From an uncultured Methanomicrobiaceae archaeon (lineage in GTDB: Archaea; Halobacteriota; Methanomicrobia; Methanomicrobiales; Methanoculleaceae), in contig CAWGXH010000004.1 of assembly GCA_963826525.1 (NCBI GenBank), positions 512,001 through 576,000 of the forward strand: a stretch of DNA of 64,000 nucleotides, written 5' to 3'. Below, piece by piece: positions 39,728 through 62,711 of the stretch. The stretch's first letter is position 1. Each line of letters starts with the position of its first letter. The notes under the pieces are model-generated. The model was not told the origin of the DNA, searched no databases, and saw only the letters and a list, made by a program, of their open reading frames with translations. The translations under genes were made by a program, and so were the position numbers.

Positions 39728-42387
39728 TTAGTGGAGCACTTCAAACCCGGGGATGCCGAGGATATGTTTTGCGAGGTACATCGCATCGGCCATCGTGGCC
39801 GAACCGTCGTCGCTCACGTCGCCGACATTCTCGTGCATCGTCTCAAACCCGGTCATCCCGAGGCTGTGGCGGGCGATGTAGATGGCGTCGTAGAGGGTGA
39901 CCCGGTTATCTTCGTTCGCATCGCCGTTTTTGATGACCGTCAGGGAGATGGTACCGGTGGCGTTGGAATGGTCGTTTCCGTCCTTTCCGTTCACCCCGAG
40001 TGCGAACGGCTGGTATGCGCCGTCCACAAACGGCGAGGCGACGGTACTCGTGACGTTCTTCATCCACGTTCCGTTCCCGGCAGAGAGCATCGGTGCGGCA
40101 TCGGCACCCCCGATGGCGGAGAGGTCGATCGTGACCGCTGCAACCCCGGCCGCATCGGATACGGCGGCGTGCAGGACCGAGGTTTCAGAGAGGCCGGGAA
40201 GACCGTCGGTGTCGGTGGGGATGTATGCGGGCGAAGCAGCCTCATCCCTGAATCCCCCGGCAGGCAATGCCGGCTTCCCGGTGACCGAGTACCCGCTCAT
40301 CGCCTTGTCGGAAGTGAGGGCGTTCGTCCAGGCAACCATGTCGTCGCCGTTGTTGGAGTTCTTGCAGTATCCGTAGACGCTAAAGGCCGCAAATGTCTCC
40401 AGGTTCTCGAAGGTGTAGTTGATCCGCACCGCTCCCCGGTTCTCGAGGTCTCCGTTCGGTCGGAGGACGCCGGCGTTGAGATCGATGAACATCAGATGGA
40501 AGGTGTTCCCGGCATCGGTCAGGTCCTGGCCTGCGATAGATGGGGTAATCCAAACTCGTTTCCGGTCGGTTTCCAGATCTGCGGGCCGTAGATGAAGTCT
40601 TTCTTCGTGAAGGTTTCGCTCGAGGGAGACGGGCTGATACGTCACGTTGTCAAGAGACGGGGGCTGGTTGCTCAGCGGGTTCGGCGTCCAGGTGTAGCCG
40701 TCGGAGTGACATGGAGTGCAAAATCATCAGGGATTGTCCCGTTCACGGCGACCATCAGGATGATCTCGTCCTCGTAGCCCTTGCCGCCCGAGTCGGTCGC
40801 ATAGAAGGTGCCGCTCTGGTTTTCAGAGACCGTCACCTGGCCGAAGTTCACGGCTGGGTCGGTGGAGATATGCAGAGCGTTGAGACCGCGGTCGTAGCCT
40901 TCGAACCTGACGTTGTAGGTGTTGTTCCCGAAGGCGTTGTACGTTCACGCTGGCGTCGTTGGCGACGTTGAAGAAGATGTTGTTGTAGTCGGGTAGGACG
41001 GAAGGCCCGGTCGGCTCAGTTACGGTGAGGTAGTCGGTCTTCACCACGGAGTCGCTCCCTCCTTCACCGGTAACGGTCAGGTTCACCGGGTAGGTAGCGG
41101 CTGTGGTGTAGGTGTAGGTCGGATTCTGCTCGGTGCTGTCGACGACGCCGTCGTTCTCGAAGTCCCAGGCCCAGGCCGTTGGTGTTCCGCTGGACAGGGT
41201 GCTGTCGACGACACCGTCATTCTCGAAGTCCCAGGCCCAAGAGGTCGGGCTGCCGGTCGAAGCGTCGGTGAAGGCAACGGAGCGGTGCTTCACCGGCGGT
41301 GACGTTCGCGGTAAAGTTCGCAATCGGTGCGTGGCGGTGTATAGGGCACCCCGGTGACCGAGTAGCCGCTGGAACCGATGCCCGAAACCCGGTTCGTCCA
41401 GGAGATCCCCTGTCCCTGGTTCGCCGCGAGGCACCAGCCGTAGCCGTTGAAAGCCGCGGCGGTGGTCAGGTTGGTGAACGTGAACTCGACCTTCGCCCCG
41501 CCGCTATCGGTCAGGGTCGCGCCCGAGAACTTGCTTGGATACATATTCCCGACGTTCAGGTCGACGAACATCAGGTAGGACTCTGCCGACTGGTCGGCGA
41601 CGTCCTGGCCGTAGGAGAGCGGCAGGGAAGGAACCACGAGATCGCCGGGACCCGGTTTCCAGGTCTGCGGCCCGTAGATGAAGTCTTCCTTGGTGAAGGT
41701 CTCGTCGACTGCCCCTTCGGTGTAGGTGTACTCCGTCGGTGCCGCGTTTACCGTCGACGACGGTGTCCAGGTATAGCCGCTCGAGGTGATATGGAGGGCG
41801 AAATCGTCCGGGATCGTTCCGTTCACCGAGACCAGGAGGATGATGTCGTCGTCGAATCCGCGTCCTCCGGTATTGGTGAACCAGAACGCACCCGACTGCT
41901 CGTCGTCGGCGGTGACCTGCCCGGCCGGAACGTTCACATCGTTTGTGATGTGGAGTTCGTTCAGGCCGCCGCCGTCTGCCTTGATGTAGTAGGTGTTGTT
42001 CGGGCCGCTGTAGGTTGCACCGTCGAGGTTGAACTTCACCCCGGCATCGTTGGCGACGTCAAAGAAGATATGTCTGGGTGCGGGGAGCGGCTCGGGGCTG
42101 GTGGAGGTGGCATAGGTGTATGCACCGAGGTCGTCGTACTCCGGCACCTGTTCGGTCGCTGCCGGTATCACATCCTCCTCGGTCGGAGTTGGTTCAGGTA
42201 GGACGGTACTCTCCAGACCAGGGTCCTGGAGGGGCTCCTGCGGAAGCCCGGCAGCCGTTTCGGTTGTGTTTAACGGCAGGTCGGTACCCAGCGCCACCGC
42301 CGGCACGGCGATGATCGCGAGGACCAGCAGCAGGACGGTCAGCCGTCTCTGCAGAACTTTGCTTTGAATACGCTCATCTTCTCTCAT
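39728..42387 (-). CDS. Exported protein: signal peptide, unassigned domain X, PKD, second domain X, Ig-like linker, type I dockerin (several frameshifts)
   Basis: MREDERIQSK...LAIIAVPAVALG signal; two GLN.LHI...YGPQ.WKP...WTN copies; WAWDFENDGVVDSTEQNP PKD; C-terminal GDANEDNRVTLYDA...GDVSDDGSATMADA paired Ca-binding loops. Confidence 0.75.
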
Positions 42388-42595
42388 ACAACAACTCCTT
42401 TCGCCGTACAGGATGCCCGAAGAACTCTTCTCCGGAACCGGCATTCCAAGTGCCTGCATTCGCAGAGACGCCATCAGAGGAATGCACTAACTCTGAATGG
42501 GAGAGTATAAGGTCGTTGTGAATTTGGGAGATTTTAAATACGTTAATTTAATGAAGGCATCATGTCTGAAAAGTTAATGATAAAATTAACTCCCC
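42388..42595 (-). promoter_or_regulatory. Promoter, 5' leader and palindrome, copy A (duplicated at 53581-53790)
   Basis: GGAG RBS, TGCATTC/GAATGCA stem (42455-42486), CTTATA box (about 42506-42511) and AGTTAAT-N6-ATTAACT (42572-42591). Confidence 0.65.
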
Positions 42596-42848
42596 TGGCT
42601 CTCACCGCCCTACGGCGCTCCGGTATCCGACCGATCCTCCGCCTAGAGGTGACAGGTTTTTCCCTCTCCGACCCTCGTCACCAGTGATGCATGCGGACAT
42701 CCTGAATATCGAGGTGACAATTGCCACGCAGGGAGGGGAGGAAAGCCTCCCAGGAGACGCTTCCCACAGCCCATTTCCGGAAATGCCGCAGAGAACATGG
42801 GCAAAATGCCGGAAGCATGATCACTGAAAAAACAGGAAGAGAAGAGGG

Positions 42849-45800
42849 TTATCTGTTCTTCCGCACGAAGTAGAGCGCCCCGATCACGGCACAGATGAGG
42901 ACGACGACTCCCGCCCAGAGGAACATCAGCGGAGCGGGTTCGCCGGAAGGCTGCGCCGATCCTGGTTCCTGCACGCCCGAGTCCGGCGACTCCGGAGCGG
43001 CGTCCGTCTGCTCCGGGGTGACCGTCGCCGTGGGAGCGCAGGTGAGCGCATAGGTGCTGAAGTGCGAGACCTGTGCAGTCACCGTCCGGCCGGCGGCATC
43101 GACGCTCGTTCTGCAGTCTTCCCATGCACCGGTCGCGGGGTCGTATCCCTGCACGACCAGTCGGGACGCATCGCCGCCTGCCGTGCCGAGGATTCCAGCC
43201 CACTCTTCTGCGGTGAAGGTGAAGACCAGGTCGATCGCCGGGGAGAAGGTGGCGCCGTCGGGAGAGCAGTTGACCGCATAGCCCGAGAAGGTATAGGACG
43301 GATCGGACGGGAGGGTCGATACGGCGGTGATCCCGACCTCGGGGAGCGGCTTACCGTCGGCATCGAGAGCGGTCACGCCGGTGTCGAGGTACAGGTGTGC
43401 GGGCGCTTCGGCGGCAGAGACGATGTACGGCCGGAGCACGCCGCCCCAGGAGGCGGTGAGGAGCTTCGCGCTGCCGACCGAGGTTGCTGGCGTCACCGAC
43501 GAACCACCGCCGCTGCTGCTGGACGAGGTAGACTGAGTGGGCGTGGACACGGCCTTCGTTGCGACGACCGCGAACGCGGAGAAGCCGCTCGGCGAGACCG
43601 CTTCGAAGACCATCATCCCGTTTCCGTCGAGCCCGATATAGGTCGTTGCAAGCACTTCGGTATCCCCGTCGTCGCTCTGCCGGAAGACCCGGATGGCTCC
43701 GATGCCGCCGTTTGCGTTCACCCAGTCGGGTGAGACGGTCATCCGCAGCACTGCGTTGCTGATGGTGTCGTTCGCTCCGAGGTTGGTCTTGGTGAAGTAG
43801 ACCGCGTAGGCCGTCGAGGTGATCTCGAGCCCGTCGTTCGCCGCGGCAAGCGTGAACGACGTTGCCGCCTCGTCGCTCGGCCGGTCGTAGATCGAGGTCG
43901 TGATCCCGAGGTCCGGGTTGTAGCCGTTCATCGAGGCGTTGAACCCGACCGAGACGTTGCCGAGGTCGCCGCCGAGGTCGGTGGTCACCGGAGCACTCTC
44001 GAGCAGGACGCCGGTGACGTTTCCGGTCGTGACGTTGCCCGCCGTGGTGAGCCCGTCAGTCAGGATGGTGACGTTCATGTTCCCTCTCTCGAGGATGATG
44101 TCGTTTCCGCTGACCGTTCCGTTGCCGGTCGTCGTGTTGAAGTTGACCTGCTGCCGGCCGCCGACGTCGTTGACGCTCGTCCCGTTGTCACGGAAGGTGA
44201 AGTTCTCCTGCCGCTCCGGCGGTGCGGACGGGGCATCGCGGACGGTGATGTAGTGGCGCCCGGGTCAGGGTGTCGCTGCCGGCGTCGTTCGTGACGGTCA
44301 GGGTGACGTCGAACCGCCCGATACTGGTGTAGGTGTGCGTCGGATTCTGCTCGATCGAGGTCGCACCGTCGCCGAACGACCATGACCAGGAAGTCGGGCT
44401 GACGCCGCTGGAGGTGTCCGAGAAGGCGACCGTGAGCGGGACAGCGCCCGACGTAACGTCGGCGGTGAAGTCTGCGACCGCATACGGATCCACCCTCATC
44501 TCGATCTGGTCGAGGTAGAACCCGACATTTGCACCATATCCAGCCGGGTTACTGTAAAGCGTCTCTACCGTGAAGGTATGGTCGCCGGCCTCATAGCCGG
44601 TGATGTCGATGGCATAGGCCTTCCATTTGTTGAGGGTTGAAACCTTTGCTACCTCTTCGCCGTCGATGAATGCTTTGATCCAGCAGGCTGCTCCTTTCCT
44701 GACCCCGTACAGCTGGAACCGCAGCTGTGCGGCACCCTCAGGGAAGGCAAGAGTTCTTTCGGCAGAGGCATTGGCGGTTATTGCCGGGGTGCCGAGACTA
44801 TAAGACCCCTCGTAGACGGTATCGCTCCGGAGCTCTGCATTCGAGAGCGTCCATCCATCGGTCGATTCGCAGGGGTCAGTCCAGACTGTCTCGAGCACGG
44901 TCCTGTTCACGAATACATTGGCCGTGCCCTGAACGGCATGGCACTGCGCCGTGACCGTTGTGGTTCCGGCGTATTCGGCAGTGAACAGTCCACCGCTCGT
45001 GATGGGCCCGACCTTCTCGTCACTGCTGCTCCACGCGAACCCGACGCCCGTCATGGCGCCGCCGTTCTGATCGTAGACCGTCCCGGAGAACTGCTGCTGG
45101 GTCTCGCCGATCATGACGACCGAAGAGGGGATGATCTCTACCGTCGCCGGGATCGGGATACCGTCGTAGGGCTCGCCGAAGTAGGCCTGTGCCGGGAGGA
45201 CAAGCGGGTAACCGTCTATGTTATTAGAGGTCAGTAATCTCTCGGAATCACCGATGCCGTTTCCGTCTGCATCGGTGAGTGCAAACGCCCCTCCCCAGTA
45301 GTTACCGATCTGACTCGTATAGGTGGCACCGTTGTAGGTGTAGGTGACCGATTCGGGGGAGTTCCAGGTGTTTGCATACGGGTCCGAGAAGGAGGCGAAC
45401 AATGCCGAATTATTGACGATCGAATTTGCATAGAGCGTGCTGCCACTGAGCGAGTCGATAGGCAGGCTCATTGCGTAATCGTTGTCCATGATGAGGTTGC
45501 GGTCAAAGCGGCAGTTTGCGGCAGCGAACACGTAGATCCCGTACTGGTTGCCGGTGATGACGTTACCGGTAATGACGAGGTTGTTGTTGCCGGGATAGTA
45601 CAACCGGATACCATAGGTGCCATCGCCACCCAGGAAGGTGTTGTTGCCGACGATGCTGTCGGTCGCTGAAGCCACATGGAGACAGATCCCATATTGCTGT
45701 AAACCAGTGACAGTGTTGCCCTCAACGAGGGTGCCGCTCACTCCAGTGATTGAGATGCCTGTATTTTTCTCCAATATGACGTTGTCGGCAAAGGTGCATC

Positions 45801-48800
45801 CCGAATAACCGTTGCAATAGATACCGTATGTACTGCTCCCGTTGATGCTGAAATTGGAGATGGTCGTGGCATCGGCAGAAACCGTTACGGTCCCGTTGAT
45901 AGTGGTCTCTTCGGGTCCGTTCTCCGACGTGATGGTCAGGGGCTTTGTAACGGTGACGGATTCACTGTATGTCCCGTCTCTGACGACGATCACATCGCCG
46001 TCGGATGCAGCGTCTATGGCTCCCTGGATTGAGGTGAAGTTCGCTCCACCCGAATCGTCGACGTACCATGTCCGGGATGTTCCGGGATTCACGACGATGT
46101 AGTCGGTCCTGACCTCGGAGTCGCTGCCGGCGTCGTTCGCGACGGTGAGGTTCACCGAATAGGTGCTGGCGGTTGTGTAGGTATGGATCGGGCTCTGCCC
46201 GGTGCTGTCGACGACGCCGTCGTTCTCAAAGTCCCAGGCCCAGGAGGTGGGGCTGCCGGTCGATGCGTCGGTGAACTGGACCGTAAGCGGGGCGTCACCG
46301 GAGGTGACGTCTGCGGTGAAGTCCGCGGTCGGTGCAACAGGCACTACGGGTCCCGGCTCCGAGCCCGGGAAGTAGGTCTGCCAGCGGTCGGCGAGCGGAG
46401 CGTTGTCGATCTGGTTGTTGCCGAGCGTATACGCCGCATCGATCACGCCGTTACCGTCGGCATCCTCGCCGGTGCAGCTGCTGTAGTAGTTTCCGAGCGG
46501 GCCTGTGTACTGCGTCTCCTGGTAGGTGTAGTCGGTGGACGAGGTGTTCCAGGCCATGGACAGGGGAACCGGCTTGTTGGTGAACTGGAACAGGTCGGCC
46601 TTGTTGTCGAGGAAGTTATTGAGGAAGATCCGGTTGTCGGCAAGCGTGCACCGCAGGCCGATCGGTGGCGCGGTGTTGTTGGCGAACGTGTTCCAGGCGA
46701 TGGTGACCCCCGAGCACCCGTCGAACCGGGTTGCCGCGTTCTGGCTGCCGCCGTTCGCCTCGAAGGTGTTGTTGGTGAAGATGTGCCCGCTGCCGGTGAT
46801 CAGCATGAACCGGGTCGGATTATTCTCAAAGACGTTGCGGTCCAGCGTGACGTCCTGGCCGGAGATGCCGAGAGAGTGCTGGTCGGAGAAACCGGTGAAG
46901 GTACAGTCCGTGACCGTGCTGCCTGCACCGGAGAAACTGATCGAACCGCCATTGAACATGATCCCGTCGATGACGGTGCCGGGGCCGGAGAATGCGGCAC
47001 CTGCCGGTGAAACCGTCACCACGTCCGCACCCTCGCCCGTGAGGGTGATCGCCTTACCGAGGGGTATGCTCAGGGCATACGACCCGGCGGAGACCAGGAT
47101 CGTGTCGCCGTCGTTCAGAGACGGGCTGGTGAAGGCTGTGTTAAGATCGGTAAAGTCGCAGCCCGAGGCACCGACGGTCACGGTCTTCGGCGGGGGAAGA
47201 TTCACGGTGATGAAGTCGGTCTTCACCTCTGAGTCGCTGCCGTATCCATTCGTGACGGTGAGGTTCACGGTGTAGGTTCCGGCAGAGGAGTAGGTGTGAA
47301 CCGGGCTCTGCTCGGTGCTGTCGACGACGCCGTCGTTCTCGAAGTCCCATGCCCAGGAGGTCGGGTTGTCGGCGGAGGCATCGGTGAATGCAACGGCCAG
47401 AGGCGCGATGCCGGTGGTGACGTTTGCAGTGAAGTCCGCGGTCGGTGCCAGTGTGACCGGGAAGTAAGTCTGCCAGCGGCCGACGAGCGGAGCGTTGTCG
47501 ACCTGGTTGTTGCCGAGCGTATACGCCGCATCAATCACGCCGTTACCGTCGGCATCCTCGCCGGTGCAGCTGCTGTAGTAGTTTCCGAGCGGGCCTGTAT
47601 ACTGCGTCTCCTGGTAGGTGTAGTCGGTGGACGAGGTGTTCCAGGCCATGGACAGGGGAACCGGCTTGTTGGTGAACTGGAACAGGTCGGCCTTGTTGTC
47701 GAGGAAGTTATTGAGGAAGATCCGGTTGTCGGCAAGCGTGCACCGCAGGCCGATCGGTGGCGCGGTGTTGTTGGCGAACGTGTTCCAGGCGATGGTGACC
47801 CCCGAGCACCCGTCGAACCGGGTTGCCGCGTTCTGGCTGCCGCCGTTCGCCTCGAAGGTGTTGTTGGTGAAGATGTGCCCGCTGCCGGTGATCAGCATGA
47901 ACCGGGTCGGATTATTCTCAAAGACGTTGCGGTCCAGCGTGACGTCCTGGCCGGAGATGCCGAGAGAGTGCTGGTCGGAGAAACCGGTGAAGGTACAGTC
48001 CGTGACCGTGCTGCCTGCACCGGAGAAACTGATCGAACCGCCATTGAACATGATCCCGTCGATGACGGTGCCGGCACCCGAGAATGCAGCACCTGCCGGT
48101 GAAACCGTCACCACGTCCGCACCCTCGCCCGTGAGGGTGATCGCCTTACCGAGGGGTATGCTCAGGGTGTACGACCCGGCGGAGACCAGGACCGTGTCGC
48201 CGTCGTTCAGGGACGGGCTGGCAAAGGCTGTGTTAAGATCGGTGAAGTCACACCCGGAGGGACCGACAGTCCATGTCACGGGATCGGAAGACCCTGTTGC
48301 GTCAATGTAGTCCGTCTTGACCGCGGAATCACTACCGAGCGCATTGGTGACCGTCAGGTTGACGGTGTAGGTCCCGACTGTAGCATAGGTATGAGTCGGG
48401 CTCTGCTCGGTGCTGTCGACGACGCCGTCGTTCTCAAAGTCCCATGCCCAGGTGGTCGGGCTGCCGGTCGAGGCGTCGGTGAACTGAACCGCGAGCGGCG
48501 CTTCACCCGATACGGGAGTCGCGGTGAAGTCGGCGACCGGTGCATCGCCGCCGGACGAACCGTCGTTGACCGTGATATAATCAGTCTTTACGAGATAGTT
48601 ACTGCCGGCACTGTGCGTGATGGTCAGGTTGACCGTGTAGGTACCGGCCGATGACATAGGTATGCGAGGGGTTCTGTTCCGTGGAGGTAGTGCCGTCGCC
48701 GAAGTCCCAGTTCCATGCGGTTACGGTGAGCGGCGAGGTGCCCTGGAAATTCACGGTAAGGGGGGCTTGCCCAACCCGGGTATCTGCGGCGGCATTTACC

Positions 48801-51800: not shown

Positions 51801-53580
51801 TACAGCAGAACCGGGTCGGAACCGAAACGTGGGTCCAGCGTAACACGGCCGGAGATGCCGAGAGAGGCGGTCGGAGAAACCGGTGAAGGTACAGCCGTGA
51901 CCGGCGCCGCACCGGAGAAGCGAGACCGCCAGAACCGACCGTCGAGACGGTGCCGGGGCCGGAGAAGCAGCGCCGGCCGGGGAGACCGCACCACGCCGCA
52001 CCTCGCCGTGAGGGTACGCCACCGAGGGGTAGCCAGGGGTACGAGCGGCGGAGACCAGGATCGTCGCCGTCGCAGGGACGAGCTGGAGAAGGCCGAAGAG
52101 ATCGGTGAAGCGCACCGGAGGCGCCGACGGTCCAGGCTGCCGGTGACGTCACGGTGAATAGTGGTCCCCACAGCAGACCGCCGGCACGTCGCCGTCAGGT
52201 TGACGGTGTAGGTGCCGCCGCGGTATAGGTATAGGACGGACCGCCGCAGATTGTCTGACGAACGTCCAGCCAGGAGGTCGGGCTGCCGGTCGAAGTGTCG
52301 GTAAACGGACGCAAACGGAGCAGCCGGAAGTCACGTCGGTGGTGAAGCAGCGACCGGCGCAGGGGGAAGTTCGTCGGTGACGGTTATGTAATCGGTGACG
52401 TTGCTCCACGACGTGCCGGCCGCGTTCGTTGCCGAGTGCCGCACCGGTACGACCGACGCCGGCGAAGGTGTGGACCGGGTTCTGCTCTGTGAAGACCTGC
52501 CCGGTATCGTCGCTGAAATACTGGAGGGTGCAGGGGTATCGGTGAACCCGACTGTGAACGGAGCAGTTCCGGAGGTTACGTTGACGGTGAAGTCCGCGAC
52601 CGGTGCCGTCAGCGGGGTATAGAGGAGCTGAGTACCCGCTCGACCCGGCGCCCGAAATCCGGTTCGTCCAGGAGAATCCCCTGACCCTGGACTGCCGCCA
52701 GCCGCCACGCGTAGGTATTGAAAGTGGCACGGCCGGGCAGGTTATGGAACGTATACTCGACCTTCGCGGCACCGCTGTCGGTCAGCCCGGAGAATACGGT
52801 CGGGTTCAGAGCGCCGACCCCAAGGTCGATGAACATCAGCTGGTAGGTCTGGCCGTCGTTCTGGTCCTGCCCGTAATAGAGCGGCAGGTACGGCGGGACG
52901 TCCAGCGTGCCGGGCCCTGGCTTCCAGGTCTGGGGCCGGTACAGGAAGTCGGCTTTCGTGAACGTCTCTTCGATCACACCATCGTAATGCGAATAGTCGT
53001 CCGGGGGACCGTCCACGGTGGAATTCGGCGTCCAGGCATACCCGCTCGACCTGAGCGTCACGGAAAAGTCATCGGGGATCGTCCCGTTCACGGCAAGCAG
53101 GAGCACGAGGTCGTCGCTCATGCCGGCCGACCCTGTGTTCGTGATGTAGAACGTCCCTGATGGGTCGGTAGCATGCGCGACCGATGCGGTCACCTGCCCG
53201 CTTACGGTTCCGGGATCGGTCGTGACGTGGATCTCGTTCAAGCCGCCGCTGTCGGCTTTGATATAGTACGTGTTGTTATTGCCGGCGCCATAGACAGCCC
53301 CGTCAAGGTTGTACTTCACGCCGGCATCGTTCGCCACGTTGAAGAAGATATGTCGGTTGCTCGACAGGGGCGCGGGAGCGGCGGAGGTGGCGTAGGTGTA
53401 TGCGCCGGTATCGTCGTACTCCAGCACCTGTCCGGTCACCGTCGGGGTCGGCTCGGTTGTGTTCAACGGCAGATCGGCACCCAGCGCCACCGCCGGCACG
53501 GCGATGATCGCGAGGATCAGCAGCAGGACGGCCAGCCGCCCCTGCAGTATTTTGCTTTGAATACGCTCATCTTCTCTCAT
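42849..53580 (-). CDS. Giant (about 3,600 aa) cell-surface protein: signal, domain X, multiple PKD, NosD/pectin-lyase-like beta-helices, PQQ-like beta-propeller, Ig-like, PGF-pre-PGF-like domain and C-terminal TM anchor (many frameshifts)
   Basis: ORF pieces 52609-53709, 52149-52772, 49954-51168, 48599-50200, 44188-48657 and 42849-44078 join in mid-domain with no internal signal peptides; ends ...VIGALYFVRKNR. The single-gene reading is inferred. Confidence 0.7.
46365..47168. repeat. Intragenic direct repeat, copy 1 (beta-helix module), period 1092 bp
   Basis: Near-identical to 47457-48260; matching shadow ORFs are offset by 1092 (46443/47535, 46535/47627, 46800/47892). Confidence 0.95.
47457..48260. 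repeat. Intragenic direct repeat, copy 2
   Basis: The central roughly 470 bp looks identical to copy 1; the few differences lie at the edges. Confidence 0.95.
51440..52140. repeat. Third, deletion-riddled copy of the same module
   Basis: Collinear anchors (gacgagcggagcgt, cgagcgtatacgccgc, gtcggagaaaccggtgaaggtacag, ggagaccaggatcgt) with many missing bases. Confidence 0.85.
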
Positions 53581-53790
53581 ACAACAACTCCTTTCGCCGT
53601 ACGGATGCCGGAAGAACTCTTCTCCGAAACCGGAGTACCGGGTGCCTGCATTCGCAGAGACGCCATTCGAGGAATGCATAAACTCTGATCGGAGAGGGTA
53701 TAAGGTCATTGTGAATTTAGGAAAAGTTAAACATGTTAGTTTAAAAAAGCGACCATGTCTGAAAAGTTAATAATAAATTTAACTCCTTCG
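53581..53790 (-). promoter_or_regulatory. Promoter, 5' leader and palindrome, copy B
   Basis: Same elements as 42388-42595: stem 53647-53678, TATA about 53699-53704, AGTTAAT-N6-TTTAACT 53765-53784. Confidence 0.65.
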
Positions 53791-54022: not shown

Positions 54023-54840
54023 TTAGAGGGGAATCATCACTGTGCCGAGACAGACGATGCCGAGCACGATGAGCAGCAGAAGATCGCTCTTCCCGGGACG
54101 GGGAGGGCGATAACAGGTTGGCCTCGCGGTCGAAGCGAACCCTCTGCTCTGCATTGCTTCGGTCACGTACCGCGCCCGGTTCATGACCGCTACCGTCATG
54201 GGGACGCCGAGCGCCATGAATTTTCCCCTGTTTTTGATGAACGTCCCCCGGTCGAACTCAAGCCCCCTGGAACGCTGGGCGTCCATGACGTTTCCGAGAT
54301 CCTCGGCGAGCGCCGTCATCGACTTCAGTGCATACCCGAGAGAGAAGGCGATAATCGGGGGCAACCGGCTGGCACGGAGGCTTGCGACGAAATCGGTGTA
54401 GGACGTGGTCATCACGAAGAGGAACGAGACACCCCCGATAGCAAGAACCCGAATTCCCATCGCTGCAGCAAAGAGCAGCCCTCCATGAGTTATCTCCGGG
54501 GAGAACGGGCCAATCTCTGCTGAAAAGTACACCGGGCCCCAGGACACATCCGGAAGAAAAGCGTTGATGACGATGATGAAGATGAAGAGCGGCAGGAGGA
54601 GGGGAAGCAAACGGGAGAACGGCCTGCCGAGGCCGGCGGCAACCGCAAGGCCGACAACGAAGGCAAAGAGGAGTGCGGTGCGACCGGTGACGTCGTGGCA
54701 AATGCGGCGATGCTGATACTGATCAGGGTGAGGAGTTTTGTTCTCGGATCAAGTCGGTGGAGAAACGAATCCACGGGGATGTAACCCGCTGCCCGGCGAG
54801 CATGCCGGCGGCCGGACCGCCTGTATCCGACCGTCGTCAT
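54023..54840 (-). CDS. ecfT: ECF transporter transmembrane T component (frameshift near 54680)
   Basis: SFLHRLDPRTKL, AQRSRGL and AMQSRGF coupling motifs. Confidence 0.9.
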
Positions 54841-56295
54841 GCCTGCTCCTCCGGCACTCTGCGATCGTCCACGATGCGGCCGCGCTCGATCCCGACGATC
54901 CGATCCGCGACTGCGCCGGAGAACTCCGCATCATGCGTCGCGATGATGACCGCCTTTCCCCCGGCGGCGAGAGCGGTGATGCACCCGGCCAGCCTCTGTT
55001 TTGCCCCGGGGTCGAGCCCGAGCGTCGGCTCATCGAGTCACCAGGACCGGCGTATCCATCGTCATGACCGATGCTATGCTCACCCGCTGTTTCTCTCCGA
55101 CCGAAAGGGCAAGCGGCGAGACCTCCAGCCCCAGGTGCCCGATACCGAGCTCTTCGCGCACGGAATCGGTCCTCTGCGCTATCACGTCCGGCAGGGCGCC
55201 GATGTTCGCGGGGGCGAAGGCCAGTTCCTCGGCGATGGTCTCCCCGAAGAGCTGGTAGTCGGCATGCTGGCAGACCAGGCCGACGGTGCGGGCGATCTCC
55301 GCGACGGTACTGTCCCGGATATCTTTTCCGTCCACGGTGATCTGCCCTGACTCCGGGCGGAGAAGGCCGTTTACGTGTTTCAGCAGCGTGCTCTTCCCGG
55401 AGCCGTTCGGGCCTGCGAGCACCGTCACCTCGCCCGGATAGATGGTGAGGGAGACGCTGTCGAGTGCCGGAGTCTGTGCACCCGGATGCCGGAACGTGAC
55501 GTCCTGCAGGGTAATGATGCCTGCGGATGCAGCTCTCGCTCGTGCCGGCCGACGGGATGCTGTGTTCCACGGGAGGGCATGCACCGCACCAGGTTCGCCG
55601 TCGGCGGCTATCGTACCGTCGATGAGGGATATTCGGCGGGAGGCCCATTGGGCGACCAGCTCCGCCCGGTGCTCGGACAGGATGATCGTCATGCCGGCCT
55701 CACGGTTCAGCGCACCGAGGAGGTCGAGGAGTCCGGCCGCACTCGCGGCATCAAGCCCGGAGAACGGTTCGTCAAGGATGAGGATTGCAGGGCGTACAAC
55801 GACTATGGATGCTATCGCCAGTCGCTGGCGTTCCCCCCAGGAGAGGCTGGTCGTCTGCCGGTCCGCAAGGGGATCGAGCCGGAACAGGTGCAGGACCTCG
55901 GTGACCGCCCGGTCGATCCGCGATACGGGCCAGCCGAGCTGCTCGGGGCCGAAGGCAAGCTCACTCACCACGTCGGTCGAGAAGATCTGGTGATCCGGGT
56001 CCTGGAAGACCATGCCGACGGTGGCGGCAAGGTCGCTGATCGTGCAGTCGCGGGTATTCTGCCCGCGGACAAAAATGTCTCCCTCAAGGGTGCCCGGTCG
56101 GGCATGCGGGATCAGACCGTTGCAGCACCGGAGGAACGTCGTCTTCCCGGAGCCGCTCGGGCCGGTCAGCAGTACGCGTTCTCCTTCCCTGATGGTGCAA
56201 TCGATCCCGGTGAGCACCTCCCGTGGCCGCGCCGACCGGGAGGCGGGGTGCCGGAACGAGACCGAGCGGAACTCTATCGCCGTGTCAGCCGTCAT
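54837..56295 (-). CDS. ECF transporter fused double ATPase (frameshift near 55040)
   Basis: Two Walker A motifs (GPSGSGKT, GPNGSGKS), VFQDPDHQ, LSWGERQR and LSVGEKQR. Confidence 0.9.
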
Positions 56296-56842
56296 CCGGC
56301 ACATCGCCCTGCTGCTGCACGATACCCGCCCTGCAGAGGCGCCCGACGATCAGAGCGGCAAGGACACCGCCGATGCCACCGAAGATCAGGTGCGTGACCG
56401 ACGATGCCCCGATGCCGATGAGGATGAAGGTGCTTTCGACGCCCAGAAGCAGGTGCACGCCGTAATTCACCACCATCTTCACGATGTTCCCGGCGGCGCC
56501 GGCGATGAACCCGACCACCGGATGGTCGAGGCGGTAGCCGAACGCAATCGAGACGAGGTCGACGGTGACTCCCATTGCGGTGTACTTGAAGATATCGAAG
56601 ACATGGAGCGCCTCCACGCCGAAGAACGATGCAAGAATGCCGGATACGAGACCGACGTACGTTCCGGCCCCGGGTCTCCGCACGATGGCGGTGCCGATGA
56701 TGACCGGCACCACCCAGAGAATCCCCGAACTCCCGGGGGTGCGGAGCGGAACCTCGATCTCACGCACGACGAAGACGAGCGCTCCGAAGAGCGAGAGCAA
56801 GGCGATCTCGTACAGGCTGAAGTAGGAAGGGCGCTTCATCAT
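56285..56842 (-). CDS. ECF transporter substrate-specific S component (substrate unknown)
   Basis: 185-aa hydrophobic protein with EIALLSLFGAL first helix and IVRRPGAG; directly upstream of the AA and T genes. Confidence 0.8.
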   Translation of the reverse strand: MMKRPSYFSLYEIALLSLFGALVFVVREIEVPLRTPGSSGILWVVPVIIGTAIVRRPGAGTYVGLVSGILASFFGVEALHVFDIFKYTAMGVTVDLVSIAFGYRLDHPVVGFIAGAAGNIVKMVVNYGVHLLLGVESTFILIGIGASSVTHLIFGGIGGVLAALIVGRLCRAGIVQQQGDVPDDG

Positions 56843-57633
56843 CTCTGATCCTCCACAAACGTTGATTCGAGCTCAAGCCGGAAGCCTTCAGGCTGCGGCC
56901 GATCCACGGCGACCATCAGGAACATGTCGGCGACCATGTTTCCGCCGGTGTAGGTGATGTAAAACGATCCCCCGGAATCGGCAGTTTCGGTCACCTGTCC
57001 TTTCCGGGCATCGAGATCGGTAGTTATATGGACTCCGTCCAGACCGGAACCGACCCGCTCGAACCAGAACGTGCAGGTATCCCGTGCCACATCATCGTCA
57101 ACCGTATGCGGGGGATCTGCCACCTCGAGGGTATACCGGTCGCCCTCCCGGAGAGGGGACACCCACCGCGGCGGTTCGCCGGATGCAGCCGTTCCGGAGA
57201 CGTAGTATCCGGAAGTACCGTAGCCGGACTGCCGGTTCGTCCATGTCCTCCCGTCTCCGACATGGAGCCCGTAGACACTGAACGATGCCGTCCCGGCAAG
57301 ATCCGTGAACCGATAGTCGACCCTGACCGAGCCGGTCCTGGAGAGGGCAGGGTTCCCGCCGACTGGCGCCACCCCGAGTTCCACGAAGGCGAGATACCAG
57401 TCTCCGGAAGGCAGGCTGCCCGGGCCGATGGCGATCGCTGTTGCGTAGGGGCGCCAGGACTGGGGGCCGTACCGGAAATCCTGGCAATCGACGGCCGCTG
57501 TGTGCAGGGAAGGGGCAGCCGAACCGCTGTCCTGGGCATAGACCTGCCAGACGGCTGTATCGACCAGGAACGATGCGGCAACGACTACCGCCAGCACGCC
57601 GACCGCCAGCATGACCCTCCTGCGAAACTCCAT
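56839..57633 (-). CDS. Exported or membrane-anchored protein: circularly permuted domain X
   Basis: N-terminal RRR plus hydrophobic segment; the two halves match the PKD-protein domain in swapped order (see findings). Confidence 0.8.
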   Translation of the reverse strand: MEFRRRVMLAVGVLAVVVAASFLVDTAVWQVYAQDSGSAAPSLHTAAVDCQDFRYGPQSWRPYATAIAIGPGSLPSGDWYLAFVELGVAPVGGNPALSRTGSVRVDYRFTDLAGTASFSVYGLHVGDGRTWTNRQSGYGTSGYYVSGTAASGEPPRWVSPLREGDRYTLEVADPPHTVDDDVARDTCTFWFERVGSGLDGVHITTDLDARKGQVTETADSGGSFYITYTGGNMVADMFLMVAVDRPQPEGFRLELESTFVEDQR

Positions 57634-57635
57634 GG

Positions 57636-58340
57636 TCAGTTCCTTTTTACCGCAATCAGTTCCCCGTCCCGTTCATCCACGAAGAGAACCGCCCGGCCGT
57701 TGATGGGGCATGCTTTGGCGGCTTTGCCCTCTTCCAGCATGATGATCCCCCGGGTAACCCGTCGGCCGTCGAGCGTCATGATCTCGTCGACCCCTGCGCC
57801 GAGGAGGTCATCCACCGATGTCGGACCGGTATGGCTGCGGATGGTGCCCTTCTGAAGGAACCTGCCGTCGTTCCGTGTCGCTGCAAGTCCGAGGCCGGCC
57901 ATCGCACCGATCACACCGTCTTCCGTGCCGCCGAGGCCTTTGAGCGGTATGCCGAGGTTCGCTGCCAGTCTCCGGGCGCGTTCCTGGGTGAGCACCGTCT
58001 GCTGGGCGTCACGACCGAATGCGATCACGGCCGCGGCAACCTGATCGAGGGTCGCTCCGGCAAGACCGGGGTCGCTTCCCTCTATGAAGTCGGCGAGCAT
58101 CGTCTCCTCGGCTATGGCGAGGGCCATAGCAAGCGGCCCACTACCGTCGGCCTCGATATGGACGACGGCGCAGCTGTTGTGGGATGTGAACGGGATCGAG
58201 GGGTGGACAAAGAGCTGGTGCCGGGTGACACCCGACACGGGGTGGTGTTCGGCGATCGCGTCGGCGACCGCACGGGCGAGGCGGCCCGTTCCCCGCGATT
58301 CCAGGTTATCGGTATCGTCAAGAGCAAGAAGTATGGTCAT
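57636..58340 (-). CDS. Stand-alone TiaS N-terminal-like (DDTD) protein of unknown function
   Basis: LALDDTDNLESRGTG, RHQL, PFTSHNS, SDPGL and DGVIGAMAGLG resemble the TiaS/Mmp11 N-terminal fold; only 234 aa. Confidence 0.7.
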   Translation of the reverse strand: MTILLALDDTDNLESRGTGRLARAVADAIAEHHPVSGVTRHQLFVHPSIPFTSHNSCAVVHIEADGSGPLAMALAIAEETMLADFIEGSDPGLAGATLDQVAAAVIAFGRDAQQTVLTQERARRLAANLGIPLKGLGGTEDGVIGAMAGLGLAATRNDGRFLQKGTIRSHTGPTSVDDLLGAGVDEIMTLDGRRVTRGIIMLEEGKAAKACPINGRAVLFVDERDGELIAVKRN

Positions 58341-58400
58341 GGTACGTTTCTTCCCGAATAGACTGGGAAGATGGAGACGAAAAACGTGCTGAAACCCGGT

Positions 58401-59879
58401 TCAGGTTAACGAAACCTCATTAATTTCTCCGATAAAGGCTTCGATCGCCCGGATAACCGTCAAAAACCCATTTTCCTCGGGTGGGGACTGGGCATAGGAG
58501 ACGGCCGCACACTGCTCGAGGATCGAAGCGGCTGCCCGGGTCTCATGACCACGCTCCCGGAGCAGATGCAGCACATCGCCGTCGGCAAGTTCCGTGCCGC
58601 TCCCGTATGCGGACGAAAGGTACAACCGCAGTGCCCTGCCGGCCGTTCCGTACGCCTCCTTCCGGTCGCCACGGTCAAACTGGCTGCGTGCCTCATCGAG
58701 GAGCCGGAGGACATCATCGCGGGGGTCGCGAGGCGGCAGCGGGACGGATGGTTCCTCCGGCTCCGGCGCTCCCGGCGCCCTGTTCCGGATGAGGTACGCG
58801 ATCAGCAGGATGATGCAGAGTGTGCCCACACCGGCGAGCAAAAAGAGACCCGGCGGCTCGTCGAGATCCACCGACCGCACCTCTCCTCCGGCGAGAGTGG
58901 CGATGATCCTCGCCGTCCGGTTCTGACCGTCGGCAAACCCGACGCTGACGAAGATAGTACCGGGAGTAGCGTTCACCGCCGCCGATACCGGGAAGAAACC
59001 GGCATCCGCGAGTTCGCCCTCGAACCGACAGTAGGTCTCGTTTACCGTCAGGATGTCAGGCACCACGAGCGACCGGTCGGTGGCGTATGCTGCATACGCT
59101 GCGCTGCCGTTCACCACCAGGCCGCCTGCGTGTAGTATCTCCCCGGAGCCGCTCCGGTAGCCGAAAGAAAATGTTCCGGTGCCTTCGTCGGTGGGATCGA
59201 TGGTCGTCGTTGCCCGGACGTACCCGTGCGATGTGAGAATGGTATGGATCTCCAGAACCAGCGGGTCATCGTCAAGATTGGCAAACAGTGCGGATCGCAG
59301 AGCCTGCATGCGATCACGCTCTTGTGCCGCCTGCTCCTGGAGCGAACCCAGATCCTGCGCCATCTGCCCGGGTAGTTTTCCGGAAGACGGCGAAGACGAC
59401 CCGCCGGAACCTGAGGAGGTCGAGACCGACGAGACGGAGTTCACCTGCTGCTCCGGCTGCTCCGCTTGTTCCGTCGCCGAACTAACGACATGAACTCGAA
59501 TCTCCGGGAGGGCGACGCGGGTGCGCGGCACGTCCCCGTACTCGAACGCGACCTCGAAGAAAAACGTGCCGGGCTCCGCTGCTGTCCCGGCGCCGGCGGC
59601 TATCTCCCGTGTATCCTGGAAGAGCGTGATCGACCGGGACTGCGTCCTGGCCGCCGGACTGCTCCCTTCCCCGCCCTCCGGCACAAACCGCACCCCTTGG
59701 GTGAGCACCCCGGTGGTATCGGCTCCGAGTGTGTTCTCGACGGCGATCGGGATTTTAACATCCTCGCCGACCTGCACGGTGTAGTCGGACTGCCCGGTCG
59801 AGAGGGTGATGCCCCCGGCCACCGCGGGAGCCACGCACCCGAGAGCGACCAGGACGGCCAGAAAGAGAAGACGCCTCAC
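58401..59879 (-). CDS. Exported membrane protein, BatD-like
   Basis: Signal peptide, Ig-like N-terminus, Ser/Gln-rich linker, late TM helix and helical tail (ALRLYLS); follows the VWA gene. Confidence 0.6.
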   Translation of the reverse strand: MRRLLFLAVLVALGCVAPAVAGGITLSTGQSDYTVQVGEDVKIPIAVENTLGADTTGVLTQGVRFVPEGGEGSSPAARTQSRSITLFQDTREIAAGAGTAAEPGTFFFEVAFEYGDVPRTRVALPEIRVHVVSSATEQAEQPEQQVNSVSSVSTSSGSGGSSSPSSGKLPGQMAQDLGSLQEQAAQERDRMQALRSALFANLDDDPLVLEIHTILTSHGYVRATTTIDPTDEGTGTFSFGYRSGSGEILHAGGLVVNGSAAYAAYATDRSLVVPDILTVNETYCRFEGELADAGFFPVSAAVNATPGTIFVSVGFADGQNRTARIIATLAGGEVRSVDLDEPPGLFLLAGVGTLCIILLIAYLIRNRAPGAPEPEEPSVPLPPRDPRDDVLRLLDEARSQFDRGDRKEAYGTAGRALRLYLSSAYGSGTELADGDVLHLLRERGHETRAAASILEQCAAVSYAQSPPEENGFLTVIRAIEAFIGEINEVSLT

Positions 59880-60823
59880 GGCAGGATCCTCCCCCGGCCG
59901 TAGCGGAGGTAGATCTCCAGCAGGATGACCGCGAGCGCCCCGGCGAAGAAGAGATCGCGGATGCTCGTATCTTTCGGCTCACGCGGGATTTCATCGGTCA
60001 GCCCGGCATAGATCGTTGCAAGCGTCCCTTCGTCGGCCGCTGCGTAGTACTCCCCCCCGGTCGTGCGGGCGATCGCCCGCAGCGTCTCTTCGTCGAGCGC
60101 AGCATACCCGGACACGCCCGTCTCGTCGTATCCCGTCGTCACGGAGTCAGGGGAGCCGATGCCCACGGCGTAGACCGGCACGTTCCGTTCGCGGGCGTAG
60201 GCAGCGGCCTCTGCCGGAGAGAAGGTGCCTGCGTTGTTGGCGCCGTCGGAGAGGAGAACAACCACCCGGTGCCGGTTCGGGATGGAATCGGCCATGTCGA
60301 TGCCGAGGGCCAGTCCGTCGCCGAGGGCCGTCTGTCCCTCCCGGGCGCGGACACCGCGGAGCCTCTCGATCACCCGGTCCCGGTCGGGAGAGAGGTAGGC
60401 AGCGCTCGTTGCACCGGACTCGAAGACGACGACTCCTGCATAGTCATCCTGATTGAGGTGGGAGAGCAGGATCTCCGCGGCGGCTTTTGCAGCCTCCAGA
60501 CGGGTGGGCTGGTAATCGGTCGCCTGCATGCTCCCGGAGGTATCCAGCACCAGCACCACGTTGACACCCTCGTCCACCCCTTCGAGCGGGATCTGCGGGT
60601 CGGCAAGGCCCACCAGGATGAGAGCGAGGGCGAGGAGGGCGAGGGCGAAGAGGGTATGCGGGCGCCGCAGGCGATTCGAACCCCGGGCTTGCGCGGCAAC
60701 CACGACCCGGGAGAAGGTGAGCGCCGCATATGATCGTTCCCGAACCGCTCGCCGGTAGAGGAGGCAGAGAACCGGAATCGCGGCCAGGCCGACGAGCCAG
60801 GCAGGTTCTGCAAATCCGGTCAT
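59876..60823 (-). CDS. VWA-domain membrane protein (BatA-like)
   Basis: FAEPAWL N-terminus, MIDAS DTSGS, TALGDGL, LLSDG, C-terminal TM. Confidence 0.92.
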   Translation of the reverse strand: MTGFAEPAWLVGLAAIPVLCLLYRRAVRERSYAALTFSRVVVAAQARGSNRLRRPHTLFALALLALALILVGLADPQIPLEGVDEGVNVVLVLDTSGSMQATDYQPTRLEAAKAAAEILLSHLNQDDYAGVVVFESGATSAAYLSPDRDRVIERLRGVRAREGQTALGDGLALGIDMADSIPNRHRVVVLLSDGANNAGTFSPAEAAAYARERNVPVYAVGIGSPDSVTTGYDETGVSGYAALDEETLRAIARTTGGEYYAAADEGTLATIYAGLTDEIPREPKDTSIRDLFFAGALAVILLEIYLRYGRGRILP

Positions 60824-61719
60824 TTAACCACCCCGGTACCGCGGGTGCGCGTAGAGGCGGCGCAGGGGCAGGTCATAGGGCTCCTGTGTGGAGACCCGGA
60901 CTTCAGGCACCCGGCACGAACGCAGAGCGCCTCCGATACGGTCGTCCGCCACGGCTACGGCATCGGCATAGGCGCTGCGGAAGGAGGAATCCGAGGTATC
61001 TACGAGCACCTGCTCGCCGGTCTCCGGATCTTCGAGAATCACCTGCCCCACGTCCGGGAGGCAGTATTCCGCGGGATCGGTCACCCTGATGGCAGTGGTC
61101 TCATGCCGCCGCCGCAGGTGTGCCAGATCCCGGGCGAACCCGGGGTCGTCGAAGTCGGAGAGGACGATGACCGAACATCTGCGCCTGACCCTCGTGCAGA
61201 GAAACCTGAAGGCGGCGGAGAGGTCGGTGCCCGTCCCCGAAGGATCGGTGCGTAACGAGGGCCTGCACCAGCCTGATGACCTGGCTCCTGCCCGCACGGG
61301 CCGGGATAAACTCGCTCGACGCGGTCCGTGGCGATGCAGAGGCCCACCCGCCCGTTCTGCCGGTGGGCGGCAAAGATCAGGCTGGCGGCCACTTCGAGTA
61401 TCCGGCGATCTTTGCTGGTCGAGGACCCGAACGCCGCGGACCCCGACCGGTCGAGGACGAGGTAGTAGGTCTGGTTCCGCTCTTCCTCGTACTCCCTGAC
61501 GAAGAGCCGATCAAGGCGTGCCGAGGCCTTCCAGTCGATCGTCCGGGCGTCGTCGCCGGGGAGGTACTCGCGGAGGTTTGCAAGGGCCATCCCGCTCCCC
61601 CGGAGCGGCGATCGATAGGGTCCGGCACAGGAGCCATCGGCCAGCGCGGCGGTTCGGATCTCGATCCGCCGGATCTGCCGGAGCAGGTCTGCCCGTTCCT
61701 CGGCATCGCTCACCGTCAT
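60824..61719 (-). CDS. DUF58 protein (frameshift near 61310)
   Basis: LREYLPGDDARTIDWKASAR, VREYEEER, DRSGS and VIVLSDF motifs. Confidence 0.9.
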
Positions 61720-62711
61720 GGCACCTCCACGACCGCCAGAATGTCCCGGACAACCTCTTCCGGGAGGATATCGTCCGCCTCCGCTTCGAAGGTGAGGAGC
61801 ACCCGGTGCCTGAGGACCGCGAGGGCAAGGGCGCGGATATCGTCCGGGACGACGTAACCCCGCCCGTTCAGCACCGCGTGCGCCTTGCCGCAGAGAAGCA
61901 GGGCCAGCGATGCACGGGGGGAGGCTCCAAAAGCGATCACAGGCTCGAGATCGAGGCCGTAGGCTGCCGGGTGCCGGGTGGCATCGACGAGCCGAGCGGC
62001 ATAGCGTTTCACAGACGGATCGGCGTATACCGACCTGACGAACGACTGGAGGGCGACCACACCGGCGGCATCGATGACCGGCGCCGGAGGGGCGGGCTGC
62101 TCCGCCGTGAACCGGTCGAGGATAGCGACCTCGTCATCGAGGCTCGGGTAGTCCATCCGGATCTTGAGCATAAACCGGTCGAGCTGCGCCTCGGGGAGCG
62201 GGTAGGTGCCTTCCGATTCGAGCGGGTTCTGGGTGGCGAGGACGAAGAACGGATGCGGCAGCGGATACGTCTCGCCCTGAATGGTGACCTGCCGCTCCTG
62301 CATCGCCTCGAGGAGGGCGGACTGCACCTTCGGCGGGGCGCGGTTGACCTCGTCGGCAAGGATGATCTGGTGGAAGATCGGCCCCTGGATGGTCCGGAAG
62401 GCGGCTGTGTGCCGGTCGTAGATCCGGGTCCCGGTAATATCGGCAGGGAGGAGATCGGGGGTAAACTGAAGGCGGGCGAAGGTGCAGTCGAGGCAGTGCG
62501 CGAGGGTCCTGACCGTGAGCGTCTTCGCGATCCCGGGAACTCCTTCGAGGAGGGCATGACCGCCGGCAAGCACCGCCACGAGCACCTGGTCAACAACCGC
62601 CTCCTGCCCGACGATCACCGTCTCTATTCCGGAACGAACCTCATCGAGAGCGGCTGCGTGCTCCTGTGCCTGGCGATTGAGCGCCGAAATCTCTGTATCC
62701 ATGTTTCCCAT
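61716..62711 (-). CDS. moxR: MoxR-family AAA+ ATPase
   Basis: LEGVPGIAKT, QFTPDLLPADITG, DEVNRAPPKVQSALLEAMQE and ATQNPLESEGTYPLPEAQLDRF motifs. Confidence 0.96.
   Translation of the reverse strand: MGNMDTEISALNRQAQEHAAALDEVRSGIETVIVGQEAVVDQVLVAVLAGGHALLEGVPGIAKTLTVRTLAHCLDCTFARLQFTPDLLPADITGTRIYDRHTAAFRTIQGPIFHQIILADEVNRAPPKVQSALLEAMQERQVTIQGETYPLPHPFFVLATQNPLESEGTYPLPEAQLDRFMLKIRMDYPSLDDEVAILDRFTAEQPAPPAPVIDAAGVVALQSFVRSVYADPSVKRYAARLVDATRHPAAYGLDLEPVIAFGASPRASLALLLCGKAHAVLNGRGYVVPDDIRALALAVLRHRVLLTFEAEADDILPEEVVRDILAVVEVP

Follow-up and report, generated by a model that had tools for sequence, protein, structure and literature searches.

Transporters of the energy-coupling factor (ECF) type are defined by capture of the ligand in a membrane-embedded S component without a binding protein outside the cell, and to our knowledge, their S, T, and A modules are known solely as importers. 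Here, we describe a gene island of an uncultured Methanomicrobiaceae archaeon in which the genes of a predicted group I ECF transporter follow a gene, permX, whose product is a circular permutant of a domain (domain X) that is also carried by large surface proteins encoded alongside. The island lies on a 64,000-nucleotide (nt) stretch of DNA (GenBank assembly GCA_963826525.1, contig CAWGXH010000004.1, positions 512,001 to 576,000), which is referred to as the window. We read it as a conserved accessory island of the Methanomicrobiales that comprises a dedicated group I ECF importer, a permX receptor, an enzyme with the kinase (TCKD) fold of TiaS, and domain X surface “antenna” proteins, and we place the probability of this reading at about 0.5. 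The island suggests a new way to catch and import a scarce nutrient, and the best lead to the ligand is a tungsten or molybdenum (W/Mo) species. A fixed extracytoplasmic partner would extend the ECF model and would provide a family of large, unannotated surface proteins of methanogens with a role. In the papers listed by our literature searches, we found no description of the cluster, of domain X or its permutation, of this extracytoplasmic partner, or of operons for ECF or Mo/W transport that include a TiaS-like protein.

Parts of the island resemble described systems. The S gene, the fused double ATPase gene, and the T gene resemble ykoEDC of Bacillus subtilis, which we take to be a system for thiamine or hydroxymethylpyrimidine (HMP). 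Common to the island and to YkoEDC-type group I systems are an S component above the PF09819 threshold, a fused double ATPase, and a T component of the CbiQ family, all encoded in one operon. However, in the island a permX gene immediately precedes the S gene, a MoxR/VWA module and a TCKD-like enzyme are attached, and its S component looks like part of a narrow subfamily with no phmmer match to solved S components. The metal transporters CbiMNQO, NikMNQO, and NikKLMQO reportedly need an extra outward-facing or membrane component (Rodionov et al. 2006). They offer a precedent for such a component, although the S component of the island belongs to PF09819 and not with CbiM or NikM. Furthermore, permX has no detected similarity to any known family in searches of Pfam (to E<=10), NCBIfam, and the ESM Atlas, which included no sequence comparison with NikK, NikL, or CbiN. 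With the Bat operons of Bacteroides (aerotolerance) and Borrelia (BB0170-0176), the island shares the order moxR (AAA_3), DUF58, and BatA-N/VWA, but it has no match to the BatB, BatC, or BatD family, and its fourth gene is archaeal and of no known family. The enzyme has the TCKD fold, the DDTD motif, and the Thr18 of TiaS. However, at 234 amino acids (aa) it lacks the ferredoxin-like, OB, and zinc-ribbon tRNA-binding domains, has a C-terminal domain of its own (~75 aa), and is encoded in transporter operons rather than in tRNA contexts.

Conservation of the operon and its permuted domain

A scan of 185,579 species genomes for permX yielded 20 loci, all from Methanomicrobiales (L029 and L044 duplicate L013 and L051). 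The S gene (ecfS) directly follows permX in every one of them, and the genes for the S, A, and T components are adjacent or overlapping in one apparent operon, an arrangement that is likewise kept in 20 of 20. The gene for the TiaS-like enzyme, here called DDTD, lies ahead of permX in all 18 loci that have upstream sequence. The genes moxR, DUF58, and VWA, together with the gene for a 492-aa membrane protein, are found within 10 kb in the 15 loci with enough upstream sequence (15/15; with an inversion in L043 and L045). All 16 permX loci that exceed 10 kb also encode domain X, and none of the four contigs below 6 kb does. The order DDTD-permX-S-AA-T, accompanied by domain X proteins and the MoxR module, occurs in 5 genomes from three families, and gene order is preserved across at least five families at a permX identity of just 35-45%. 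Half of 20 further DDTD loci are also of the island type; 5 of these have the whole MoxR module, 3 have the 492-aa gene only, and 2 have neither.

The distribution of domain X, as seen with a profile built from 19 copies, follows that of the operon. Among 41 relatives, the profile matched exactly the 6 cluster-bearing genomes, plus a weak partial match in G002. In a sample of 301 genomes from the phylum, it matched 18, of which 15 (Methanomicrobiales) have both domain X and permX, 1 has domain X only, and 2 have permX only. The genes thus form a conserved unit that is inherited together, and the co-occurrence and synteny test set by the first-pass annotation of the window strongly bears this out.

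The window encodes three unpermuted copies of domain X (52663-53394, 41320-42114, and ~40259-40941; jackhmmer domain E values of 1e-35 to 1e-132), a domain of ~250 aa. In profile-profile alignments made with hhalign, residues 21-152 of permX correspond to residues 98-250 of domain X (probability 99.5%, E 8e-23), and residues 154-260 correspond to residues 3-108 (probability 99.4%, E 2e-21), whereas an alignment of the N-terminal half of domain X with its C-terminal half shows no relationship (probability 0.3%). Since the halves match in swapped order and are mutually unrelated, permX is a genuine circular permutant, in agreement with the original description of permX as a permuted domain X. 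All six permX orthologues first examined show the same swapped-order match. A shifted register of an internal repeat was considered as another origin of the pattern and was rejected because the halves are unrelated.

No known family was found for domain X, so the possibility that it would map to a known domain unrelated to uptake was not borne out. Its copies have no match in Pfam or NCBIfam, the profile has none among PDB sequences, and a Foldseek search with the model returned nothing at E<=1e-3. The best hit in a VIA structure search (AvmM, Z 6.8) is inside the chance range, and for copy 1, Pfam at E<=10 gave weak ArlG and VirB8 matches, with nothing usable. The AlphaFold model is all-beta (predicted local distance difference test score [pLDDT] 86; predicted template modeling score [pTM] 0.88) and has a faint fold likeness to the beta-sandwiches of cohesins, carbohydrate-binding modules (CBM), pilins, and adhesins. 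Divergence from DUF3344 was considered and rejected (hhalign probability 0.1%). For permX, the ESM Atlas was uninformative, its matches being unnamed clusters (scores of 0.78 and 0.76) that fell short of the recognition mark. Domain X is rare; at E<=1e-3, a set of 1.84 billion representative proteins yielded 422 matches. It is usually N-terminal on otherwise highly diverse surface proteins, and in the 70 representatives scanned, only surface-type modules accompany it. PKD is the commonest of these, and X-DUF3344-PEGA is a recurring architecture.

On sequence criteria, the transporter itself agrees with a YkoE-family group I ECF system in the features tested. The T component matches PF02361 with 71.2 bits (cut-off 25). 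Intact orthologues of the two transporter genes that are broken by frameshifts in the window are found in genome G015; there, ecfT encodes 269 aa (TIGR02454, 65.7 bits, below the equivalog cut-off of 111.8) and ecfAA encodes 477 aa (TIGR04521 ECF_ATPase_2, 351.5 bits, cut-off 330). The S component has at least 59 clusters of homologues, labeled as ECF S component, cobalt permease, or thiamin/HMP permease, and among the matches listed, every one with a named organism is from the Methanomicrobiales. With few close homologues and this restriction of the named ones, the S component looks like a narrow subfamily; a phmmer search against PDB sequences gave no match even at E<=10.

A handover of the ligand from permX to the S component had been proposed as part of the import route, and the structure prediction planned beforehand for this pair weakly supports an association of the two. 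Based on alignments made for this analysis, the predicted ecfS-permX complex scores 0.49 against 0.02 for the best control, its runs concur on at least 75% of contacts, and the pLDDT of the partner is no lower than 76. Of 157 solved complexes, 116 attained the pass mark, as did 2 of 215 mismatched pairs; among scores of 0.60 or less, where the present score falls, only 18 of the 157 solved complexes reached it, along with both mismatches.

In some genomes, the MoxR module is inverted or lies at a distance. MoxR orthologues with 55-91% identity adjoin the cluster in other genomes, and DUF58 is a single open reading frame (ORF) in L017 and other loci. Full-length VWA orthologues are confined, among the 41 relatives, to the 6 island-bearing genomes, and where the gene is not adjacent (4 further Methanomicrobiales island genomes), an orthologue is kept elsewhere in the genome in 4 of 4. 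In most loci, the 492-aa gene sits immediately upstream of DDTD, also in three that lack the other MoxR-module genes alongside. Its product had been called BatD-like, a label that finds no support: Pfam gives no BatD match even at E<=10, and the ESM Atlas yields hypothetical, unnamed archaeal clusters only. A weak DUF4381 match at the C terminus (E 0.26) and a lead to DUF4129 (0.75 in the ESM Atlas) were the other similarities seen. MoxR-VWA pairs are described as chaperones for remodeling or metal insertion (NorQD; PMC9976466, PMC13036017). No link between a MoxR module and an ECF operon was found among the papers listed on such modules, in which the term “energy-coupling factor” does not occur.

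The TiaS-like enzyme and its tungsten and molybdenum contexts

Structural modeling and profile searches agree that residues 1-158 of DDTD have the TiaS kinase (TCKD) fold. Residues 1-151 match TiaS chains in the PDB (profile E 1e-6 to 3e-5), Foldseek finds 5xob with E 8e-10, and VIA finds 3amt_A with Z 20.4 (root mean square deviation of 2.0 A over 149 residues; Z 7.1 in the next row). The label “TiaS-like” is thus right for the N-terminal 155 residues; the matches are confined to residues 1-158 of the DDTD model and to residues 1-155 of the 417-aa TiaS chain. D8, D9, T10, D11, and T18 are invariant in 12 DDTD sequences and align without gaps to the N terminus of TiaS, in which the motif is reported to bind Mg-ATP and Thr18 to be autophosphorylated (Osawa and Terasaka 2011). 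A Pfam scan found no OB or other domain in DDTD, and the absence of the tRNA-binding domains means that the protein is not TiaS. The family is large, with more than 1,400 clusters of homologues at E<=1e-5, carries the NCBI label “ABC transporter substrate-binding protein,” and is present in 40 of the 301 genomes of the phylum sample. Named organisms with close DDTD homologues include members of the Methanobacteriales. A weak match also connects DDTD with methanogenesis marker protein 11, in its C-terminal half (TIGR03280, E 1.4e-7, far under the cut-off); this marker protein may likewise hold a TCKD-like domain.

Outside the island, DDTD genes often keep company with genes for molybdenum and tungsten handling. 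All six non-island DDTD loci first examined (L018-L023) sit with Mo/W genes, as do 5 of 10 later ones. The neighbors include TupA-, TupB-, WtpA-, and WtpC-like proteins, MFS_MOT1, and a MoSto-like protein that matches the molybdenum storage subunits of Azotobacter (PDB MosB, E 1e-60; MosA, E 5e-44). In L020 and L022, the order is MoSto-like, DDTD, TupA-like, TupB-like, and a WtpC-like ATPase with a TOBE domain. An apparent MoSto-like/DDTD/TupABC-like operon is seen at L020:7091-12403 (genome G007) and also in L019, L021, L022, and L023 (Methanoculleus and relatives), and we found no published description of this association. These operons hold a sister subfamily of DDTD with the same length and motifs. 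However, they lack permX, the ECF genes, and domain X, and their transporter is a classical binding-protein-dependent ABC transporter for tungstate or molybdate. In L019 and L023 (L019:10720-19969 and L023:10790-19920), predicted secreted proteins with an Oxidored_molyb domain (a molybdopterin-binding domain of the sulfite-oxidase type) and a four-PEGA protein are encoded beside WtpA, which for this domain is an unusual extracellular setting.

These contexts point to a specific version of the import reading, in which the island would acquire tungsten or molybdenum in forms outside the range of Tup, Wtp, and Mod transporters (thio-, complexed, or mineral-bound forms, in sulfidic habitats) and DDTD would be an ATP-dependent Mo/W factor. 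We regard this version as rather unlikely, although several observations speak for it. The island-type and Mo/W-type DDTD proteins are ~53-56% identical, and the two subfamilies look interchangeable: the island DDTD is the sole DDTD in G015, G027, G031, G032, and G036, and G015 has its MoSto-like gene next to its TupA-like gene, with only ~430 bp where G007 carries DDTD. In L014 and L017, DDTD-permX-ECF is followed by an X-PEGA protein gene and then by TupABC-like genes; a MOT1 gene lies beside the island in L039, and WtpA and MOT1 genes do so in L041. The DDTD of L018 falls in the island-type clade yet is encoded beside MOT1, MoSto-like, and TOBE-ATPase genes. A methanogen can be fed with tetrathiomolybdate and molybdenite (PMC11484787).

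Against this version, the link runs through a paralogue. A midpoint-rooted tree of 46 DDTD sequences separates island-type and Mo/W-type clades with support of 96/96, and L018 is the single exception to its split by context. Mo/W genes are missing from 5 of 20 further DDTD contexts; in three of these, DDTD neighbors genes for a calpain-like protease and for a surface protein with PKD and PEGA modules. About 18 of 22 flanked island loci show no Mo/W transporter within 10 kb, and no locus has a ModA, TupA, WtpA, TOBE ATPase, or MoSto gene between moxR and ecfT; such genes adjoin the island in L014, L017, L039, and L041 only. Furthermore, PF09819, the family of the S component, is of the thiamine/HMP type, and we know of no ECF transporter for oxyanions.

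In its widest form, the proposal is that this is the first ECF importer with its own extracytoplasmic receptor, fed by a surface antenna relay, that it takes up W/Mo forms beyond Tup, Wtp, and Mod, and that TCKD-fold proteins are new ATP-dependent Mo/W-handling enzymes shared with the MoSto-like/TupABC operons; we think it improbable that all of this holds. The question bears on the supply of tungsten and molybdenum to methanogens in sulfidic habitats. The two contexts of DDTD, in the island and in the MoSto-like/Tup operons, make the role of a stand-alone TiaS kinase fold directly testable, and cultured carriers of the island make experiments possible; they include Methanosphaerula subterraneus, Methanogenium marinum DSM 15558, and Methanogenium cariaci JCM 10550. 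The calpain-like setting is seen at L052:10800-15147, L061:10761-14726, and L062:10629-14260 (family f5), where a Mo/W-type DDTD lies beside genes for a calpain-like cysteine protease and a PKD-PEGA protein of ~1000 aa.

Proposed import and its alternatives

In the import reading that we prefer, domain X and permX would bind one scarce ligand outside the cell, with permX acting as the transporter-proximal receptor for the S component. The ECF module would bring the ligand into the cytoplasm, where the TCKD-like DDTD protein may modify or trap it using ATP. MoxR, DUF58, VWA, and the 492-aa protein could form an accessory membrane-associated unit that serves assembly or loading in the Methanomicrobiales version of the system.

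Several observations weigh against this reading. Genome G083 (family f14) has DDTD-permX-S-AA-T without an unpermuted domain X or a VWA orthologue, G099 (also f14) has permX without an unpermuted domain X, and G155 encodes a single domain X protein but neither DDTD nor permX. Relatedness makes the genomes non-independent, and the co-occurrence counts therefore overstate their statistical weight. The predicted complex of permX and the S component lends the reading weak support, and the frameshifts in three core genes, if real, would mean that the copy in the window is decaying. Domain X has no conserved cluster of Cys or His residues, and given its weak, generic likeness to beta-sandwiches, a structural or adhesive role fits equally well. 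The gene content of G083 indicates that the core is DDTD-permX-ECF; the MoxR module and the surface proteins are additions whose linkage to it is tight yet not absolute. The first-pass annotation had treated the whole set as one system, but the core does not require the surface proteins or the MoxR module, since G083 and G099 lack an unpermuted domain X and G083 also lacks a VWA orthologue.

The main rival takes up the structural role of domain X. The domain would anchor secreted proteins on permX, VWA, or the 492-aa protein at the surface layer, and the ECF and MoxR components would drive assembly, remodeling, or turnover rather than import. The mostly N-terminal position of domain X on diverse surface proteins, with adhesin-type modules only (PKD, Big_2, PEGA, NosD, DUF3344, and dockerin), is what such docking would lead one to expect, as is the faint resemblance to cohesin, CBM, pilin, and adhesin sandwiches. 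A complementary, permuted copy at the membrane would suit heterotypic pairing, VWA domains are classic protein-binding modules, and clade A DDTD genes adjoin PKD-PEGA surface protein genes in 3 loci. However, the restriction of known ECF modules to import tells against docking, translational coupling joins permX to the S gene at all loci, and a cytoplasmic enzyme with a kinase fold is hard to fit. The core of G083, which stands without a domain X surface protein, argues for a transporter-linked role of permX that is independent of the surface proteins. We consider docking or assembly unlikely.

If the transporter were a plain YkoEDC-like system that salvages thiamine, HMP, or a similar precursor, the TCKD-like protein would be a salvage kinase, and permX and domain X would be passengers. 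The S component passes the PF09819 threshold, the thiamin/HMP permease label of its homologues comes from JGI, the likeness to ykoEDC extends to all three components, and kinases often accompany vitamin importers. Nevertheless, we hold vitamin salvage to be highly improbable: the S component finds no PDB sequence even at E<=10 with phmmer and appears, among the matches listed, to form a narrow Methanomicrobiales subfamily, and the window contains no riboswitch match. The permX gene beside the S gene in 20 of 20 loci and the tracking of permX by domain X (15 genomes with both, 1 with X only, 2 with permX only) would be unexpected for passengers. Transfer of the genes as an island without functional coupling, with the common domain as an evolutionary by-product, would account for the patchy distribution (1 of 18 genomes in genus g6 and 2 of 3 in g8), for a MoxR module that is sometimes inverted or distant, and for the group II intron that adjoins the island. 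It is very unlikely in our judgment, because VWA orthologues are retained even far from the core (4/4), gene order survives across at least five families with permX proteins that share 35-45% identity, and the domain common to the transporter partner and the surface proteins is both specific and rare.

Layout, surface proteins, and assembly

All nine genes from moxR to ecfT were found on the minus strand where the first-pass annotation had placed them (Table 1), and the coordinates, along with the Pfam matches, confirm that they are co-oriented and that most overlap or abut. Overlaps of 4 nt join moxR to DUF58, VWA to the 492-aa gene, and permX to ecfS; ecfS and ecfAA overlap by 20 nt. DUF58 and VWA are separated by 0 nt, DDTD and permX are separated by 2 nt, and the widest junction is a 60-nt gap ahead of DDTD. 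The two large secreted-protein genes downstream, with their three further copies of domain X, are present as described, though each is split over many frames. The N-terminal membrane helix of permX, like the signal peptides, was assigned by eye from the sequences.

Table 1. Genes of the island and the adjoining surface-protein genes (window coordinates)
Feature	Position	Strand	Basis
moxR, MoxR-type AAA+ ATPase	61716-62711	-	Pfam AAA_3 E 5.3e-65, AAA_lid_2 E 1.3e-20
DUF58 gene, one frameshift	60824-61719	-	two ORFs match DUF58 profile 2-98 and 110-212
BatA-N + VWA membrane protein	59876-60823	-	Pfam BatA E 3e-11, VWA_2 E 8e-22
492-aa membrane protein, no known family	58401-59879	-	no Pfam match at E<=0.01
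DDTD protein (234 aa)	57636-58340	-	TiaS TCKD-like domain plus ~75-aa C-terminal beta domain
permX	56839-57633	-	domain X profile halves in swapped order; hydrophobic N terminus read from sequence
ecfS, YkoE-type S component	56285-56842	-	PF09819, 38.9 bits (cut-off 25.2)
ecfAA, fused double ABC ATPase (EcfA-A')	54840-56304	-	two ABC_tran stretches; frameshift near 55030
ecfT, CbiQ family	54023-54930	-	Pfam CbiQ E 1.2e-19 for 54023-54610; frameshift near 54700, N terminus in other frame
First giant secreted/surface gene(s), many frames	42849-53709	-	Pfam and domain X matches
Second secreted protein gene, frameshifted	39728-42474	-	domain X copies 2 and 3, PKD, dockerin type I

The first of the two surface genes (53709->42849) encodes, in order, domain X copy 1, PKD, a NosD beta-helix, a beta-propeller, PKD/NosD repeats, Big_2, and a C-terminal membrane anchor. 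The second (42474->39728) encodes domain X copy 2, PKD, domain X copy 3, and a dockerin type I module. The dockerin (window 39728-40645, minus strand; 29.9 bits, cut-off 22.9) closes the second domain X protein, and no cohesin was seen nearby. Elsewhere in the Methanomicrobiales, the domain X carriers beside the operon are large PKD, PEGA, beta-helix, or DUF3344 surface proteins.

The source genome comprises 3.06 Mb in 16 contigs, with a completeness of 87.6%, a contamination of 5.3%, and a G+C content of ~61%. Related loci and homologues from named organisms put it in or close to Methanoculleus, within the order Methanomicrobiales. In this assembly, frameshifts split DUF58, ecfAA, ecfT, and both large surface-protein genes. 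Split genes also occur elsewhere in the window and genome (e.g., 24741-27072 and L019:3430-4543), and the G015 orthologues of the split genes are unbroken. Because the orthologues are intact and such breaks recur elsewhere in the genome, indel errors in the assembly are the likelier cause, and we consider the frameshifts to be probable assembly indels. They resemble the indel errors of long reads, and gene calls from this genome need care.

An Rfam search over the window found a group II intron only and no riboswitch. A promoter and terminator scan returned fewer sites than in shuffled sequence and is uninformative for an archaeon. In L015 (L015:14361-17296) and at the same place in L016 (family f3), a NifH-like gene and two genes like nitrogenase component 1 lie on the opposite strand directly downstream of ecfT; they are probably unrelated to the island. 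The group II intron (window 63316-63451, plus strand, and L025:30-1301 just past the window end; Rfam D1-D4-7, 58.2 bits) is accompanied by a reverse transcriptase/maturase ORF and sits between moxR and a divergent gene for a domain X-DUF3344-PEGA surface protein (L025:1522-4947).

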